Source of the DNA: a virus
Taxonomy: Duplodnaviria > Heunggongvirae > Uroviricota > Caudoviricetes
Strand: one strand, 5' to 3'
Virus record (IMG/VR): IMGVR_UViG_2778261354_000005
DNA: 7,640 bases
In this document: piece after piece, positions 297 to 7,004 of the stretch
Layout of the letters: each line of letters opens with the position of its first letter
Numbering within the stretch: position 1 is the first letter of the stretch
Translations under genes and position numbers: made by a program
Notes under the pieces: model-generated
Told to the model about the DNA's origin: nothing
What the model saw: the letters and a program-made list of their open reading frames with translations, nothing else
Database searches by the model: none

Positions 297-1112
297 TCAA
301 TGAACGGTATCGAGCAGCTTTAACAGCTCAGGGAATCGGGATTCGAAGAAATGCGGCTGCGTCTCGCGCGGATTTGCGGGACTGGTGATGTTCTTGCCGA
401 ACATGCAGCCTTTCGCTGTCAGCGACCAGAATTTTTTGATGTTGTTAATCGCGGTACGGCTGTATCGTTCGCGTTGTTCAACGATCCCCAGCTTCGCCAT
501 CTGGTGATATGCCTGATTAGCCGTCAGGCGGATACCATACTGCTTCAGCAGTGCACTCAGCGACAGCGTAGGGCGGCTTGAACCATCTGGCGCATCAGCA
601 GGTGCATCAATGGCATAGATCGGCATAAGTTCAGGAAGACCAGCTACCTTTGATAATTTCTGGTATGCACCAAGTTTCGAGGAGTTTGACAGATTTAGAG
701 TCTTTGCTGCTGATTCAAGCAGAATGACCCCGGATTTAATTTTGTCGGATGTGGTTTCTTCTGGTGATGAATTATGAAGCGCATCAAAAGTACGTATCAC
801 TTTTAAGCTGAATGCCGGGCTGATCCACATTGCATATGCATAGACCAGCTCTTTACAGACATACGTCCCACCATTGCGCCCCTGAATGGTGATGACAGGA
901 ATACTACGGGAATCTCCCGTAGTTTCTTCTTCCAATAATTCCACAAGAGCCTTCGTTTCAGGACGACGCATAAACTCGTGAACTTCCAGCGAACGGGAGG
1001 AGCGATTCTCACCAGCGGCAAGAAGAGCAGCTTTCTGAAGGTCGTTAAGACAGTAGTTAGATTCGAAGTACTGGCGCACAGAAACGCCATCAATTACAAG
1101 CAACTGATTCAT
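297..1112 (-). CDS. KilA-N / KilAC(ANT)-domain antirepressor-like protein (Roi/Ant-like)
   Basis: ORF 297..1124 in the track. The N-terminal half has the KilA-N-type signature (…GGTYVCKELVYAYAMWISPAFSLKV…) and the C-terminal half resembles the KilAC/ANT domain of phage antirepressors. Start placed at ATG 1110-1112 (MNQLLVIDG…), which has GGAG 6 nt upstream; the track's 1124 start is a GTG four codons earlier. Stop TGA at 297-299. Confidence 0.75.
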   Translation of the reverse strand: MNQLLVIDGVSVRQYFESNYCLNDLQKAALLAAGENRSSRSLEVHEFMRRPETKALVELLEEETTGDSRSIPVITIQGRNGGTYVCKELVYAYAMWISPAFSLKVIRTFDALHNSSPEETTSDKIKSGVILLESAAKTLNLSNSSKLGAYQKLSKVAGLPELMPIYAIDAPADAPDGSSRPTLSLSALLKQYGIRLTANQAYHQMAKLGIVEQRERYSRTAINNIKKFWSLTAKGCMFGKNITSPANPRETQPHFFESRFPELLKLLDTVH

Positions 1113-1211
1113 TGGTTTCTCCACAAATTTTTATCCACGAGCGGGACTGCACTCCCTTTTCGTTGATGCAGGATGAACTTACTGCGATTTTTAATAGTTA
1201 TCAAGGATACA

Positions 1212-1227
1212 CTGTTCATAAATACAG
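1212..1227. promoter_or_regulatory. LexA (SOS) box-like motif CTGT-N8-ACAG upstream of the KilA-N gene
   Basis: Seen: caCTGTtcataaatACAGta at 1210-1229. It matches the E. coli LexA box consensus taCTGT(at)4ACAGta at 16 of 20 positions, with both CTGT/ACAG arms intact and an AT-rich spacer. It lies about 100 bp upstream of the KilA-N start, just downstream of a candidate promoter. Confidence 0.5.
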
Positions 1228-1240
1228 TATCTTTAACGAG

Positions 1241-1274: not shown

Positions 1275-1670
1275 TTACCGAGTTGCTAATTTGCAACTCG
1301 CTTTTTCGTACTTACTGATAGTGATCTCGACCTTCCCCTCCGGGATAACCGGTCCCCACTCCACCAGCATTCTTTTCACCTGTCTGTCGTCTTCCCACAC
1401 ACCCGCGTGGGTCAGGGCGTCAAACAGCGCCTTGTTATAGTTGTCCAGATCGCGGATCCGGTTATCCGGAGGAAACAACACGATCTCCACTGAAGCAGGT
1501 GCCGACGTTGGTTTCGGCAGACGACGTAACTGCTCAACTATTGCTGCACACGCCGCGCTCTGGAATTTTCGCCCCGCCGCGCTTATCAGGCTCTTACCAG
1601 CAAACGCCCCTTTGTTGGGGTGTCGCCAGTACGTGTTCACGCTGGGCGGAAAAGGCAGTATTAGCTTCAT
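1275..1670 (-). CDS. rusA: RusA-family Holliday junction resolvase
   Basis: 131 aa. N-terminal LPFPPSVNTYWR and the acidic catalytic motifs RDLDNYNKALFDALTHAGVWEDDRQV are typical of RusA. The ATG at 1668-1670 overlaps the upstream gene's stop (ATGA). Stop TAA at 1275-1277. Confidence 0.85.
   Translation of the reverse strand: MKLILPFPPSVNTYWRHPNKGAFAGKSLISAAGRKFQSAACAAIVEQLRRLPKPTSAPASVEIVLFPPDNRIRDLDNYNKALFDALTHAGVWEDDRQVKRMLVEWGPVIPEGKVEITISKYEKASCKLATR
1279..1306 (+). terminator. Plus-strand-oriented intrinsic terminator-like hairpin inside the 3' end of rusA
   Basis: Seen: 8-bp perfect stem cgagttgc (1279-1286) / gcaactcg (1293-1300), loop taattt, then c + TTTTT (1302-1306) on the plus strand. 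On the minus strand the hairpin is followed by GTAACGGAATTG, with no U-tract, so it is oriented to stop plus-strand transcription. Confidence 0.4.
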
Positions 1671-1993
1671 ACTTTCAGGCCCCTCTCATGTAACCAGTGG
1701 GCTGCACGCAGCCTGGCGTTTGCCTCACCGGCAAGCAGGGCGCGGATAATCCCGACCGCCTCGCTGTCGTCGTCCTTCACCGCGGTATGAAGAGTGATAC
1801 CCCGGGCCACGCCACGCTTTATCGTGATGACACCTTTTTTCTCCAGTGCGCGAAGATGCTCCACCGCTGCATTCACCGAACGGTATCCCAGCATGGTTGC
1901 CACCTCCTGATTGGTTGGCGGGAAGCCACGTTCTTTCTGATAAGAAATCAGCATATCCAGCACCTGCTGCTGGCATTGAGTTAATGTCGTCAT
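1667..1993 (-). CDS. LexA N-terminal DNA-binding-domain protein lacking the S24 autocleavage domain
   Basis: 108 aa. It aligns by eye to the E. coli LexA winged-HTH domain, including the recognition-helix region RSVNAAVEHLRALEKKGVI (LexA: RSPNAAEEHLKALARKGVI). There is no Ala-Gly cleavage site or Ser/Lys catalytic domain after it. ATGA overlaps at both ends (1990-1993 and 1667-1670). Confidence 0.75.
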   Translation of the reverse strand: MTTLTQCQQQVLDMLISYQKERGFPPTNQEVATMLGYRSVNAAVEHLRALEKKGVITIKRGVARGITLHTAVKDDDSEAVGIIRALLAGEANARLRAAHWLHERGLKV

Positions 1994-2643
1994 GCCGCCA
2001 TCTCCCTGACCAGTTTTTCCGCCTGCTGGCGAACCTGCGCCAGAAACGCCTCACCACATGCCTCAAGTTCATCGCGCCCGATGTAGCTGATTGCCGCTCC
2101 CTTCCAGGTCTTGTCGAAAACAGCAATAGCACCAGCGAAGAAAGCACCTGTTGGCACCTGCTTTTCGTCTTTCGGGATAAACCAGGCTGGCAGTTCAAAA
2201 CCAATACGCCCGCGAATAAAAGCAATATGATCTGCATCTTCCGGCCACCACACTTCGCTGGTGGCCGCTTTGATCAGGAAAACATAGCGCCCGCCCTTAT
2301 CACGCATGGCACTGGCATGTTTCATGATGTAACGCATGCCGGTGATGTATTGCCCCTCATGCTGACTGGCGCGGCTGTATGGGGGATTACCAAAGGCAGC
2401 ACCTTTAAGCTCCGCAAGACGTTCTGACCAGTCATGCGCCAGCGCGTTGTCTTCCGCCGTGTAATACGCGGCACATTTGGCGTTATCACCGTCAGTGAAC
2501 AGATCCAGAACAAACGGACCAAACAAGGTGTTAATTCCCCAGAAAATGTTGTCCGGCGTGCGCCACTGATCGCCCACTTCCTTCAGTTCATGGGCTGGTT
2601 TGTTCCGCAGTTCTACCAGCGCCTGGCAATATTTATTACTCAT
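1990..2643 (-). CDS. Phage-type orphan DNA N6-adenine methyltransferase (Dam family)
   Basis: Has the phage Dam-family N-terminal motif QWRTPDNIFWGINTLFGPFVLDLFTDGDNAKCAAYYT and the catalytic GNPPYS motif. Start placed at ATG 2641-2643 (MSNKYCQ…), which has GGGGG upstream; the track's 2688 start is a GTG that would overlap the micro-ORF. No adjacent restriction endonuclease gene. Confidence 0.8.
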   Translation of the reverse strand: MSNKYCQALVELRNKPAHELKEVGDQWRTPDNIFWGINTLFGPFVLDLFTDGDNAKCAAYYTAEDNALAHDWSERLAELKGAAFGNPPYSRASQHEGQYITGMRYIMKHASAMRDKGGRYVFLIKAATSEVWWPEDADHIAFIRGRIGFELPAWFIPKDEKQVPTGAFFAGAIAVFDKTWKGAAISYIGRDELEACGEAFLAQVRQQAEKLVREMAA

Positions 2644-2735
2644 TAAGCCCCCACGTAAAAAGCATCCGCAATGTCTCCGGAAGTACACCCCGGATGGGCT
2701 TCAATGAATTTCTGAACTTCATTCAAAAGACTCAT
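2643..2735 (-). CDS. Candidate 30-aa micro-ORF (MSLLNEVQKFIEAHPGCTSGDIADAFYVGA)
   Basis: Hand-translated; it is below the track's size cut-off. ATG at 2733-2735 is preceded by GGGGGTGATC. It starts 2 nt after the TGA of the replication gene, and its TAA overlaps the Dam ATG (TAATG). Confidence 0.35.
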   Translation of the reverse strand: MSLLNEVQKFIEAHPGCTSGDIADAFYVGA

Positions 2736-2737
2736 GA

Positions 2738-3733
2738 TCACCCCCTGAATCCTTCCGGGATCTGGCTGTAGTCCACGTTGTCGTAACTGGCTTTGAAGTA
2801 CGGGTCCTCGCGTCTGGCTGCAGATACCGCAGGAACTTCCCAGGATTCTTCGAAATGACGATCCGGACCAAAGAACGTCGACGCCTGCTTCACGAACTGG
2901 GTACCGGTATTTCCAGAGACACGCACCCAGGCGGCATAGCGTTTCACACCGTCGAGCATGGTTTCGGGTGTCACACCTTCCCTGATTCGGGCTTTCCAGG
3001 CTTTAAAAGCGGCGGATTTTGAATTACCACCAGCACGTTTGGGATATTCCTGCCAGGCCTGTTCAAATTCCGGTGAATATTCCTGTCTGGCAGAACGCGC
3101 TGGTGCAGACGCGTCAGCGGATGCGCCAATAGTGTTTTTAGTCTCCGTTGTAATCTCTGTAGTAATCTCTGTAGTAATCTCTGTATTTGTATCAACATTC
3201 GGCGTATCCCCTGTTCCGTTATGACGTCGGGGGGTGTTCCGTTTTAACGTAATAGCTGTATCGCTGATTGCATTATTGCTGTTACTTTCTGGCGAAACAG
3301 AAGAAGGTGTGGTGATGGCCGCAATTGCCTGTGGGTTGATCCCGACAAACAAAATATTGCTGCATTTCACCCCATCGAGCATTTCCACCGTGCGTAAATC
3401 CAGAGTAATAAACCCTGCATCGCGCAGACGCTTCAGCGCATCTGCGGTTTCCCTTTTCCCGAAACCAAACTGCTCAGCAAACGCCTGGTAGCTTCTTTGC
3501 AGTTTGTCGCCCTGAAAACGCTTGCGATATCCCAGCAACGCTCCGGTGTGCTCATCCCTGACCTCTGTCGGGCGGTACCAGTAAACGATCTCTGAAAGCA
3601 GAGCGATAGCCGTCGCATCCGGACGCCCACTGGGTAGTCTAATATATTTCCACCAGGTCGCAGGTGTAACATTGCCGGAAATATTAATTTGACCAATAGC
3701 CATAACTTCCGGTGTGGGGGCGTAACGGCTCAT
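2738..3733 (-). CDS. Putative phage replication initiation protein (O-like / replisome organizer)
   Basis: 331 aa. Assigned by position (after the immunity module, before the nin-like genes) and domain layout: an N-terminal putative DNA-binding region, a low-complexity linker containing the TEIT repeat, and a C-terminal domain. ATG at 3733 is preceded by AAGGAGGT. The exact family is not identified. Confidence 0.55.
   Translation of the reverse strand: MSRYAPTPEVMAIGQINISGNVTPATWWKYIRLPSGRPDATAIALLSEIVYWYRPTEVRDEHTGALLGYRKRFQGDKLQRSYQAFAEQFGFGKRETADALKRLRDAGFITLDLRTVEMLDGVKCSNILFVGINPQAIAAITTPSSVSPESNSNNAISDTAITLKRNTPRRHNGTGDTPNVDTNTEITTEITTEITTETKNTIGASADASAPARSARQEYSPEFEQAWQEYPKRAGGNSKSAAFKAWKARIREGVTPETMLDGVKRYAAWVRVSGNTGTQFVKQASTFFGPDRHFEESWEVPAVSAARREDPYFKASYDNVDYSQIPEGFRG
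3139..3186. repeat. Tandem 12-bp direct repeats (taatctctgtag x3 plus a degenerate fourth copy) inside the replication gene; candidate iterons
   Basis: Seen: 3151-3162, 3163-3174 and 3175-3186 are identical or 11/12, with a degenerate copy at 3139-3150. They encode TEITTEITTEIT in the linker. A 9-mer tgttccgtt also recurs at 3212-3220 and 3235-3243. Confidence 0.6.
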
Positions 3734-4029: not shown

Positions 4030-4250
4030 GCCACACCTCCCAGACGCTTAAACATTTTTCCGGAGCAAAAGGCTATAAGCGGCATACTGACGCGGTAATT
4101 ACGGCCCAGCGGTTCACAAACCACCTTCTGACATTCACGGTCAACCAGGCTAACACGTAGAACATGCCCAGCAGGCGTGGTGTACCACTGACCCGGACGA
4201 GGACAACGGAAAGTATGATTGGTAAACCGTTTGAAAATATTCCGGATCAT
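4026..4250 (-). CDS. Hypothetical small protein, 74 aa, 4 Cys
   Basis: ATG at 4248-4250 is preceded by AAGGGGG. ATGA overlap with the upstream ORF stop. No family recognised. Confidence 0.5.
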   Translation of the reverse strand: MIRNIFKRFTNHTFRCPRPGQWYTTPAGHVLRVSLVDRECQKVVCEPLGRNYRVSMPLIAFCSGKMFKRLGGVA

Positions 4251-5407
4251 TTGCGCCCCCTTACCTCTGAAGGGTTCAGCGACAAATTTATGAGACAGGC
4301 CAGCGCCGAAGCATCATTAATATAGTCATATAAGCTAACAGCCAGCGGAGATTCGGCTTTTGCCAACATAGGATAAAGCTGCTGCAGCCAGACCTGATGA
4401 ATTGATGAAATGTAGGAACAGAGAACGCTGGCGTTATGTGCAACGTCGCTCGGTACAGCGGGCTTTGAAAGCTGTTTCTCCATCTGGTTAAAGGCATTTA
4501 TGTATGCCTCTTTGAACCGGGCAGCACGTTTACCCGTGAAACCCATAGCAAGAAACGCAAAACCGTCTCGTGTGATTTGATAGCAAGGGAGCTTGCGTGT
4601 ACCACCGTTCGGTTGATTTACCGAAATCGATGTCTCCGCAAAATTGCGGGCACAAAACTCTGGGGAACAATCCAGAGTGCGGATCTTTTTCAGCACATCG
4701 TCGTGACGCTTGGAGAAGAAGTTGGCAACAGCCAAAGAAGTGGTAACGGCCTGGCCGTTGTCAATGGTGATTTCAGGTTGAGTGAGGGCTGGGATCGTAG
4801 CCATGATGGCAGCCTCCGTTGACAGTGAAAAACTTCCACCACCGGAAACGCCAATTTCACTGGTGGTGAACTGGACGGGGTTGGCGTAACCGGCGTCAAC
4901 GGAGACCGGCGCACCTTTCGGTGCCCCCGCCCAGCCCACCATAATCTGGATGTGAGCAAATGCGGACGATAAAAAAGACGCTGGCGCGTCATACATCGCC
5001 GTTGACAATTTCAGGACGCCAATCCCGGCACCCGCTTTATAAGGTGCCTGAGCAGTGTAACGTCCCGGAATTGCAGAATCAATATGCTGGTGGTCCTTCA
5101 CACTCAACAAAATCACGCCTGAATTTCCACAAAGGACTAAAGCACTCATGCGGGTAGTCTTTGCGAAGATAGATAACGCGCTGTGTTTCTGGCTCCCAAC
5201 GAATAACATGGACATAAAGCCCTCTTCCGTCACGAAACCAGCGGTTAAGTTCCTGCACAACTCGCCCCCCACAGTCAGGTAAAGTTCTCTGTGGTTACTT
5301 ACAGCCAGGTGATTTGGTAATCTGCATTCATGCCGTAACAACAGGTGTTCAGCGACGCTGACCACCAGCTGTTGCGACAAACGGTTATTTGCCGTTAAAC
5401 TATTCAT
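4247..5407 (-). CDS. Rha-family phage regulatory protein; Rha domain in the C-terminal 185 aa, with an in-frame 201-codon N-terminal extension of unknown function
   Basis: Residues about 212-310 match the Rha pattern (VTTSLAVANFFSKRHDDVLKKIR…YQITRDGFAFLAMGFTGKRAARFKEAYINAFNQME). An internal ATG at 4802-4804 (MATIPALTQPEITIDNGQAVTTS…) has GGAGG 8 nt upstream and would give a canonical 185-aa Rha. The frame nevertheless stays open for 201 codons upstream, to an ATG at 5407 that overlaps the CII-like stop (ATGA). Confidence 0.6.
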   Translation of the reverse strand: MNSLTANNRLSQQLVVSVAEHLLLRHECRLPNHLAVSNHRELYLTVGGELCRNLTAGFVTEEGFMSMLFVGSQKHSALSIFAKTTRMSALVLCGNSGVILLSVKDHQHIDSAIPGRYTAQAPYKAGAGIGVLKLSTAMYDAPASFLSSAFAHIQIMVGWAGAPKGAPVSVDAGYANPVQFTTSEIGVSGGGSFSLSTEAAIMATIPALTQPEITIDNGQAVTTSLAVANFFSKRHDDVLKKIRTLDCSPEFCARNFAETSISVNQPNGGTRKLPCYQITRDGFAFLAMGFTGKRAARFKEAYINAFNQMEKQLSKPAVPSDVAHNASVLCSYISSIHQVWLQQLYPMLAKAESPLAVSLYDYINDASALACLINLSLNPSEVRGRK

Positions 5408-5961
5408 GCGTTAGTTTCTCCACAACCAGAAGCAATCGACGCCACGACGCCCGGAGCTGCACACTCGCGGGCGTTACTATTTTCTGGAGCGCAGAAGATT
5501 TTGTAGACCAGTGCTGCATGCTCCTGGAGCTTCGAAATTGAAAGATACAGTTCGTCGTTAATTGCTGTCTTCTCATGCGGTTCCACTACACCGTCTTCGA
5601 TTGCTGAACGAATCTGTTTTGAATAACTGCCGATCTGTTCAATGACTTCCAGTAAACGCTGGTTAATATCGGCATTGTCCACATCCTCGACGTCAGGAAG
5701 AGACACAAAGACGCCATTTGCAGACTGCGCCACAGCGTCAGCAATGAAGTGAGTGCCACCAGCACGTTGTAAAATCATTGCCCATCCCAGCGGGAAAATC
5801 TGATCGCCATCGGCACGAAGGCGGTTAAATAATGCGTTCTCTGTTACATCCAGCCACTCAGCAGCTTCAGCGTAACCCTCCGGCAACGCCGCGATAGTTT
5901 TTCTGACAGCTTTCACGTACCACTCAGGCTGTTTTTCCACTTTCCAGTTATGATTACCCAC
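5404..5961 (-). CDS. CII-like early regulatory protein (tentatively the larger phage-186 CII type)
   Basis: 185 aa. GTG start at 5959-5961 has AGGAGG 6 nt upstream and overlaps the cro-like 3' end by 8 nt. The call rests mainly on position directly after cro; family membership is not verified. Confidence 0.5.
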   Translation of the reverse strand: MGNHNWKVEKQPEWYVKAVRKTIAALPEGYAEAAEWLDVTENALFNRLRADGDQIFPLGWAMILQRAGGTHFIADAVAQSANGVFVSLPDVEDVDNADINQRLLEVIEQIGSYSKQIRSAIEDGVVEPHEKTAINDELYLSISKLQEHAALVYKIFCAPENSNARECAAPGVVASIASGCGETNA

Positions 5962-6214
5962 GGCTTACCTCCTGTTCCTGTGGTTTAAACCCATTCTGGT
6001 TTTGGCTAGATTGAAAACGTGCCGGATAAAGAATCTGCATTTCGCTGATTTCACCCTTAAAAAAATTGGCCAGACGTTCTGCAAGATCGATAGATGGAAT
6101 TTGTTCCAGTCTTTCAATACGACTCAGCGTCGCTGGATTGACCTGAACGCCAGCAGCAACATGCTGCAAAGTAAATCCGTGCGTCTTACGCACATTCCGT
6201 AATGGTGATTGCAT
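5954..6214 (-). CDS. cro: Cro-like HTH (XRE-family) regulator
   Basis: 86 aa with an HTH signature (GFTLQHVAAGVQVNPATLSRIE). Transcribed divergently from the repressor gene. ATG at 6212-6214 is preceded by GGAGG. Confidence 0.8.
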   Translation of the reverse strand: MQSPLRNVRKTHGFTLQHVAAGVQVNPATLSRIERLEQIPSIDLAERLANFFKGEISEMQILYPARFQSSQNQNGFKPQEQEVSRG

Positions 6215-6311: not shown

Positions 6312-7004
6312 ATGAACATAGGAAACCGAGTCAGACAACTTCGCCAGGCGAAGAACATGAAAATCGCCGATCTCGCTGAAGCAATAGGAGTGGATGCGGC
6401 GAATATCTCACGCCTGGAAACAGGTAAGCAGAAACAATTCACTGAACAAGCCCTGAGTAATATTGCCAGGAGCTTAGGTGTTGATATTGCTGATCTCTTT
6501 ACCTCAGACGTCAAAAGTAATACTGTATTTAAAAACAGTATTAGTGAGGATGTTGCGCAGGTGAAGGATGTATTCCGTATTGAAATGCTGGATGTCAGTG
6601 CCAGTGCGGGAAATGGCCTTATCCAGGGCGGTGATGTCATTGATGTGATTCATGCCATTGAATACAGAACTGATAATGCTGTATCGATGTTTGGCGGACG
6701 GCCAGCCAATCACATTAAAGTTATCAACGTTCGTGGGGACAGTATGTGTCCAACCATTGAGCCAGGAGATCTCATCTTCGTTGATGTCAGTATCAATCAG
6801 TTTGATGGAGATGGTATCTATGTATTTGGTTTTGATGATAAAATTTATGTCAAACGACTGCAAATGATACCTGACAAACTACTGGTGATTTCTGATAACC
6901 AGATTTACCGTGAATGGGGAATTACCAGCGAAAATGAACACCGGTTTATGGTCTTTGGAAAGGTCTTAATCAGCCAGTCACAAACCCTTAAGCGACACAA
7001 TTAA
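6312..7004 (+). CDS. cI: CI-like prophage repressor, HTH-XRE + S24 (LexA-like) peptidase domain
   Basis: 230 aa. N-terminal HTH (RVRQLRQAKNMKIADLAEAIGVDAANISRLETGK) and C-terminal S24 motifs (VRGDSMCPTIEPGDLIFVD with the catalytic Ser, and KIYVKRLQ with the Lys). Stop TAA at 7002-7004. Confidence 0.9.
   Translation: MNIGNRVRQLRQAKNMKIADLAEAIGVDAANISRLETGKQKQFTEQALSNIARSLGVDIADLFTSDVKSNTVFKNSISEDVAQVKDVFRIEMLDVSASAGNGLIQGGDVIDVIHAIEYRTDNAVSMFGGRPANHIKVINVRGDSMCPTIEPGDLIFVDVSINQFDGDGIYVFGFDDKIYVKRLQMIPDKLLVISDNQIYREWGITSENEHRFMVFGKVLISQSQTLKRHN

Follow-up and report, generated by a model that had tools for sequence, protein, structure and literature searches.

A LexA DNA-binding domain without its peptidase in a lambdoid prophage: a candidate uncleavable binder of LexA-type operators

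The SOS response governs prophage induction, Shiga-toxin release, mutagenesis and antibiotic tolerance, and its logic needs a LexA that can be destroyed. What, then, does a phage do with a gene that keeps the DNA-reading head of LexA and carries no peptidase domain? The question is raised by a 108-aa LexA-like gene in IMG/VR record IMGVR_UViG_2778261354_000005 (Caudoviricetes), a stretch of 7,640 nucleotides that was analysed whole and is called the window here. The window represents the early region of a lambdoid prophage of E. coli, and the gene is real, widespread, already annotated and uncharacterised: we found no functional study of this enterobacterial family in the literature, only annotation, e.g. 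pham 237 in Shiga toxin (Stx) phages. The single explanation that we consider most likely, and hold tentatively, is that it encodes an uncleavable LexA-type binder which, as a dimer on LexA-type operators, re-imposes or prolongs repression.

Profile searches align residues 1–65 of the LexA-like protein with the entire Pfam model LexA_DNA_bind (PF01726, model positions 1–65 of 65, E=2.9e-19; 69 bits, cutoff 23.7) and find no match to Peptidase_S24 (PF00717) within its 108 residues, which bears out a first-pass annotation that had read the gene as a LexA winged helix-turn-helix (HTH) without peptidase. The top solved relative in a phmmer search of the PDB is the N-terminal domain of E. coli LexA (1lea, E=6e-16), and tblastn places LexA residues 1–74 on window positions 1993–1790 with 51.5% identity over 68 residues (E=2e-20). 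LexA residues 75–202 match nothing adjoining the gene in any frame and weakly match the S24 domain of cI at 6765–6911. The features that would mark the protein as a LexA proper are missing, namely an S24 domain with its Ser/Lys dyad, a conserved Ala-Gly hinge site and a score above the cutoff of the lexA equivalog model TIGR00498, which is matched at model positions 1–91 only (70.7 bits, cutoff 110.95). A frameshifted S24 remnant, envisaged earlier as the sign of a broken full-length repressor, is not found next to the gene, and there is no room for one because a full-length RusA open reading frame (ORF; Pfam positions 1–123 of 124, starting at 1670) overlaps the LexA-like stop by 4 nt. Since both the S24 peptidase and the Ser/Lys dyad are lacking, the protein is predicted to be insensitive to RecA-stimulated self-cleavage, as had been claimed.

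An AlphaFold2 (AF2) monomer model (mean predicted local distance difference test score 84.8; about 90 in residues 1–70) gives the DNA-binding part three helices (residues 6–22, 28–35 and 40–52) and two wing strands (56–58 and 66–68), and Foldseek superposes the model on DNA-bound LexA (3jso_B) with a root-mean-square deviation (rmsd) of 0.8 Å over 68 columns at 50% identity. Beyond this domain the model predicts a disordered linker (71–75) followed by helices 74–88 and 93–103, a tail in which no Pfam domain was matched. Full-length Foldseek comparison returns weak matches to BlaI/MecI-type repressors (2g9w and 1okr; E about 1e-2, rmsd 7–9 Å), which share the architecture of a winged HTH joined to a C-terminal helical dimerisation domain but belong to another family with other operators, so that the likeness is one of analogy only. 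A LexA N-terminal domain on its own is a poor operator binder, and we therefore infer that the tail supplies dimerisation, and its C-terminal ~35 aa form a plausible element for this. A trans-cleavable Ala-Gly site was also considered in the tail, where the HMMER alignment sets A88-G89 of the LexA-like protein (LLAGE) against the LexA cleavage site A84-G85 (VAAGE), and was ruled out: the Gly is not conserved (A-N in homologues P0037 and P0046), the site is absent in distant members and the segment falls within a predicted helix of the AF2 model. The LLAGE segment is probably left over from a lexA ancestor.

The recognition helix (residues 39–52, SVNAAVEHLRALEK) is identical to that of LexA (SPNAAEEHLKALAR) at 9 of 14 positions; the earlier wording "nearly identical" was a little generous. 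Ser39, Asn41, Ala42, Glu44 and Glu45 are given as the DNA-contacting residues of LexA (PMC3091678), four of which (S39, N41, A42 and E45) are retained, with Glu44 replaced by V. The wing residues R64-G65-I66 are invariant across the LexA-like family. LexA Arg28 is replaced by Asn. Judged from these residues, the reading head is of gammaproteobacterial LexA type with one family-specific change.

Residues 1–108 of the protein match phrog_362 ("transcriptional repressor") over model positions 1–106 of 106 (E=4.2e-59), and a clustered protein database holds more than 3000 near-identical members under the name "LexA family transcriptional regulator". The gene is present in 61 phage records, including Stx2a, Stx2c, Stx2k, SfII, SfIV, SfV and cdtI phages, and 2233 of the 5426 complete E. 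coli genomes carry it as well (41%). Every carrier identified by organism belongs to the Enterobacterales; phages of Edwardsiella, Hafnia and Proteus are the furthest removed. Judged by the gene order of the CPS-53 prophage of K-12, the gene appears to be missing from that prophage, which may be one reason why it was never studied. Among the alleles from the fetched loci 73 of 74 are intact, with a ratio of non-synonymous to synonymous polymorphism (pN/pS) of 0.09 for the whole gene, falling to 0.027 in the DNA-binding domain and rising to 0.21 in the tail, and the recognition helix shows not one amino-acid change among 73 alleles. An exhaustive HMMER search recovered short relatives at 40–52% identity with equal length and tail pattern; because the length of 104–108 aa and the pattern EA....R.L.A....AR.RA...L...G are kept down to ~40% identity, the tail is a conserved functional part of the protein. 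A contig scan for homologues gave seven loci, of which the distant ones span the DNA-binding domain alone and resemble LexA genes or paralogues. The conservation of the LexA-like gene supports a functional, selected gene and not a pseudogene. The searches also turned up proteins of ~140–230 aa (P0152, P0156, P0160, P0164, P0151 and others) with two LexA DNA-binding domains in tandem and no S24 domain, which are possibly single-chain pseudo-dimers and another route to an uncleavable LexA-type binder.

The LexA-like gene overlaps each of its neighbours by 4 nt, its ATG lying across the Dam stop (ATGA) with a Shine-Dalgarno GGAG 8 nt upstream. Across 80 viral contigs carrying the gene, RusA lies directly downstream in all 79 informative loci, Dam directly upstream in 58 of 80, and a KilA-N homologue after RusA in 72 of 74. 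Relatives at 44–48% identity (loci L002 and L184–L188) keep the order replication gene, LexA-like gene, RusA, followed by an Rha/ANT or HNH gene and then Q. A consensus promoter scan found no sigma-70 site ahead of the LexA-like gene or at the LexA boxes. This order places the gene in the rightward early operon, on what would be a delayed-early lytic transcript (PR-type), so that the protein is expected in lytic growth or early infection and not in the lysogen. The proposal that the prophage uses it to hold SOS-box-controlled genes shut is unlikely, the gene being translationally coupled within the Dam/LexA-like/RusA lytic stretch. In L184–L188 the gene after RusA encodes a protein with Rha and ANT/KilAC parts. 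Down-regulation of the SOS response has been reported for the ANT/KilAC domain of Listeria AriS (PMC9043618). By analogy, these phages may carry two SOS-modulating functions side by side.

LexA of Enterobacterales hosts uses CTGT-N8-ACAG. The window contains three exact matches to this motif against 0.10 expected (0 of 200 shuffles), which were scored by a heterology index whose matrix comes from E. coli operators known in the literature; the scores are approximate. Two of the matches, one in the RusA/KilA-N intergenic region and one inside cI, have indices comparable to those of the sulA, recA and lexA operators, and none of 200 shuffles gave a site as good. The third (5289–5304), in the 145 bp that separate the cII-like gene from a 59-aa ORF, has an index within the range of shuffles and is probably not a functional operator. 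The core of the intergenic box is CTGTTCATAAATACAG at 1212–1227, where the first-pass annotation had placed a box, and just downstream of it on the minus strand a weak TTGATA-17-TAAGTT was seen by eye that we do not claim as a promoter. The box lies 766 nt from the LexA-like gene with RusA always in between. Among loci with the exact box module, 88 of 95 also have the gene upstream, a co-occurrence that linkage of box and gene over this distance accounts for, and six loci have box and RusA without the gene. In most other carriers KilA-N begins ~19 nt after RusA with no box between them, and its N-terminal domain is a different mosaic variant.

The box inside cI, TACTGTATTTAAAAACAGTA, is a perfect 20-bp LexA operator in the linker codons N-T-V-F-K-N-S. 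Its CTGT-N8-ACAG recurs at the identical codon position in all 44 loci whose CI shows 90% identity or more, and also in L184 and L182, where CI identity is 72% and 51%; its spacer changes non-synonymously while the CTGT/ACAG arms are kept, and no promoter is evident beside the window copy. The LexA-like gene is present in all nine cI-box loci with enough flank and in L184, in counts without correction for kinship, and is absent within 11 kb in L182. The cI box is a candidate site for host LexA, the LexA-like protein or both. The e14 repressor YmfK of K-12, which belongs to a different CI family, has no internal LexA box. A further strong and recurrent LexA box, TACTGTAAAAATAAACAGTG, lies at 9920–9939 of locus L001 within a late-region DNA adenine methylase gene downstream of Q, overlapping methylase codons 3–8 (N-T-V-K-I-N-S), i.e. 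an operator embedded in coding sequence; in 22 loci such a box is found at a distance of ~+3.9 to +5 kb relative to the LexA-like gene.

Other possible operators were sought in 90 carrier loci, with and without clustering. In this weak test no alternative stands out among all 256 four-base inverted repeats at spacings 6–10, nor among inverted and everted CTGT/ACAG arrangements at spacings 0–24. CTGT-N8-ACAG itself is spacing-specific, with 26 raw contexts against 1–11 at other spacings.

We propose that the LexA-like protein derives from a gammaproteobacterial-type LexA in which a short flexible linker and a two-helix hairpin would have taken the place of the S24 dimerisation/self-cleavage domain behind the winged HTH. 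Transcribed and translationally coupled with Dam and RusA, it would be made in lytic growth or just after infection; the hairpin would dimerise it, and the dimer would occupy LexA-type (CTG-containing) palindromic operators. With no protease domain the dimer could not be removed by RecA*, and repression of LexA-controlled promoters would therefore plausibly be re-imposed or prolonged while host LexA is being destroyed. The targets would be host SOS genes and the LexA-controlled antirepressor or moron promoters of the phage itself and of co-resident prophages, and in the window possibly the intergenic box and the cI box.

The protein shares with E. coli LexA (1lea, 3jso) the N-terminal winged HTH, S39/N41/A42/E45 and the wing RGI, and differs in lacking the S24 domain, Ser119/Lys156 and the conserved Ala-Gly, in the replacement of Glu44, and in that its dimerisation would have to come from another element, the 35-aa helical hairpin. 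DNA binding that RecA* cannot remove is also a property of lexA Ind- alleles and of the LexA N-terminal cleavage fragment, and dampened SOS induction is the expected outcome. These are host mutants and degradation intermediates, and the free fragment binds weakly, has no dimerisation domain and is degraded, whereas the LexA-like protein has its own conserved tail. The nearest characterised relative in kind, and the sole characterised phage-encoded truncated LexA homologue, is gp6 of the Bacillus thuringiensis tectivirus GIL01, which binds GaCACA..TGTGaC and activates the late promoter (PMC6182141). Each is an early phage gene whose product has the DNA-binding part of LexA but not the cleavage domain, and works beside the control of the phage by host LexA. 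GIL01 gp6 differs in being 66 aa long with no C-terminal extension, of Gram-positive LexA type and with the recognition helix SHKTAHRYLMQLE, whereas in the LexA-like protein the recognition residues are still of host type and its gene lies in a lambdoid nin region with Q-run late genes. BLASTP gave no alignment between the two at E<=100, and they are independent truncations of different LexA lineages.

Phage products that weaken the SOS response of the host or change its timing include GIL01 gp7, Listeria AriS (PMC9043618) and DinI-like proteins (PMC7556043), which have LexA or RecA proteins as their targets or are unrelated in fold, none being a mimic of LexA's DNA-binding domain. GIL01 gp7 and gp6 and Listeria AriS are precedents, by analogy, for the tuning of the SOS circuit by phages. 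LexA-controlled prophage antirepressors are described for the Gifsy phages, 186 (Tum) and N15 (AntC) (PMC3121763). With these, and with the P22 immI logic, the window shares a strong LexA operator before KilA-N and an SOS input apart from CI cleavage; the likeness concerns the box and KilA-N, a predicted antirepressor, and not the 108-aa protein, and the window prophage differs in also having a cleavable-type CI (HTH + S24).

Several observations weigh against an uncleavable binder of LexA-type operators. Of the close homologues, 119 of 126 have V at position 44, and distant short members have A, F, T, L or Y there, whereas Glu44 is retained by 12 of 14 full-length LexAs that this search recovered; because Glu44 is systematically replaced in the family, binding specificity could be relaxed or shifted. 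GIL01 gp6, the precedent in kind, binds a non-LexA site and is an activator. With clustering, CTGT-N8-ACAG is enriched just ~2-fold in the 90 carrier loci. Of the loci that carry the LexA-like gene, 17 of 81 contain the intergenic box module, as do 5 of the 61 phage records; family members at 44–48% identity have no LexA box in 10–16 kb except the one inside cI in L184, and no phage-borne LexA box accompanies the gene constantly. The effect in cis of repression at the intergenic box would be limited, because KilA-N can also be reached by read-through from the early operon. The expected timing of expression, finally, is read from gene order. The box counts also do not support the suggestion that the intergenic box is the obvious target of the protein: because about one-fifth of gene carriers have it and distant members have none nearby, the box is more likely a host-LexA operator giving KilA-N an SOS-inducible promoter, and it may or may not also bind the LexA-like protein.

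The main rival, which we rate as less likely while taking it seriously, is a regulator of altered specificity like GIL01 gp6, acting at a phage-specific, non-SOS operator as repressor or activator of a phage promoter, e.g. in the nin/Q region. Besides that precedent, the systematic loss of Glu44, the change of Arg28 to Asn, the many carriers without a LexA box within 10–16 kb, and the abundance of proteins consisting only of a LexA DNA-binding domain in structure predictions from phages of many hosts all speak for it. Set against this, no other inverted repeat stands out in the carrier loci, four of LexA's five DNA contacts are kept, as is the wing, under very strong purifying selection, and lambdoid late genes are already under Q control. 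The constraint on the DNA-binding domain and recognition helix, the strongest in the protein, also makes it improbable that the protein is not mainly a transcription factor, serving instead through contacts with host LexA, RecA or RNA polymerase or as a DNA-targeting accessory for Dam or RusA. Such a role would fit the invariant adjacency to RusA (79 of 79 loci), the translational coupling and a family-specific tail with no Pfam domain, but in mosaic nin regions the closeness of two genes says little about function, and we know of no role of the LexA N-terminal domain in RecA or LexA contacts.

The version first put forward for this locus, in which uncleavable protein made in the lysogen keeps the KilA-N box promoter shut or delayed during SOS, draws on the strong operator directly downstream of the LexA-like/RusA pair and on the 88 of 95 box-module loci that have the gene. 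We think it unlikely: that association is explained by linkage, the reverse one is far smaller (17 of 81 loci, 5 of 61 records), and six loci have box and RusA without the gene. The consensus scan gives the gene no separate promoter and both its ends overlap adjoining genes, so that expression in the lysogen is not expected, and a permanently bound uncleavable repressor would make a LexA box pointless. That the gene is a decaying fragment of a full-length LexA/CI-type repressor is refuted. The partial, below-cutoff match to TIGR00498 and an HMMER alignment that reaches the LexA hinge/cleavage region (LLAGE against VAAGE) do suggest descent from a truncated lexA. A pN/pS of 0.09 with 73 of 74 alleles intact, length and tail pattern kept to ~40% identity, the want of an S24 remnant in any frame beside an abutting RusA, and presence in 41% of complete E. 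coli genomes are all contrary to decay.

The closest phage matches to the window are ECOR phages, Stx2a/2c/2k phages, mEp460 and cdtI (features in the table below). On the minus strand the early operon runs from the cro-like and cII-like genes through the 59-aa phrog_1343 ORF, an Ash/Rha-type gene and small ORFs to the O-like gene, and on through Dam, the LexA-like gene, RusA and the 150-bp intergenic region to KilA-N, whose likely start is the ATG at 1112 (GGAG ahead) rather than the GTG at 1124. Bases 1–201 are the terminus of an ISEc13 element of the IS4 family (98.6% identity), which ends in an IS50-like inverted repeat (...TGTGTATAAGAGACAG), and all prophage matches to the window begin at base 202. 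The insertion lies ~95 bp downstream of the KilA-N stop codon; because it sits between the early genes and the expected Q position, this copy of the prophage may be defective. A 386-aa ORF (4247–5407, minus strand) is probably over-extended, its first ~60 codons overlapping the 59-aa ORF in another frame and its Rha-type part beginning near residue 212 (MATIPALTQ...). The O-like gene contains 3.7 tandem copies of the 12-bp unit TCTCTGTAGTAA (window 3142–3185), encoding TEITTEITTEIT; the repeats look like origin iterons in a replication initiator gene, cf. lambda O.

Table 1. Coordinates of features in the 7,640-nt window
Feature	Coordinates	Strand	Basis or remark
LexA-like gene, 108 aa, phrog_362	1667..1993	-	ATG start; ORF list, profile searches
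LexA-type winged HTH, residues 1-70	1784..1993	-	Pfam, AF2 model, Foldseek
Recognition helix, residues 39-52	1838..1879	-	alignments to LexA and homologues
C-terminal residues 71-108, linker + predicted helical hairpin	1670..1783	-	AF2 model, family alignment
Strong LexA operator, RusA/KilA-N intergenic region (150 bp)	1210..1229		minus strand TACTGTATTTATGAACAGTG; index 5.3
Strong LexA operator inside cI, linker codons ~70-76	6521..6540		TACTGTATTTAAAAACAGTA; index 3.2
Weak CTGT-N8-ACAG match, gap between cII-like gene and 59-aa phrog_1343 ORF	5287..5306		index 14.8
KilA-N domain gene, antirepressor-like	297..1112	-	ORF list, profile search
RusA Holliday-junction resolvase	1275..1670	-	start overlaps LexA-like stop (ATGA)
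Dam-type N6-adenine methyltransferase (phage)	1990..2688	-	stop overlaps LexA-like start
O-like replication gene	2738-3733	-	early operon
59-aa ORF	5079-5258	-	matches phrog_1343 end to end, E=2e-36
cII-like gene	5404-5961	-	next after cro-like in early operon
cro-like gene	5954-6214	-	first in rightward early operon
cI (HTH + Peptidase_S24)	6312-7004	+	profile search

Should the LexA-like protein have an operator of its own, phages would have re-tooled the LexA fold a second time, independently of GIL01 gp6. If it instead reads LexA-type operators, an indestructible LexA reading head would be a simple means for a phage to override or retime the SOS response, in its own host cell and against competing prophages. 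A bolder form of this explanation, possible in our view and more doubtful than the explanation itself, is that lambdoid prophages in ~40% of E. coli genomes, Stx2 prophages included, carry a RecA-proof LexA surrogate that after induction would re-occupy SOS operators, shut host SOS functions and the antirepressors of rival prophages, and possibly bind the cI operator in this immunity type. If true, this would amount to a second, phage-imposed phase of the SOS response, one with a hand in how prophages compete and how Shiga-toxin phages are induced.

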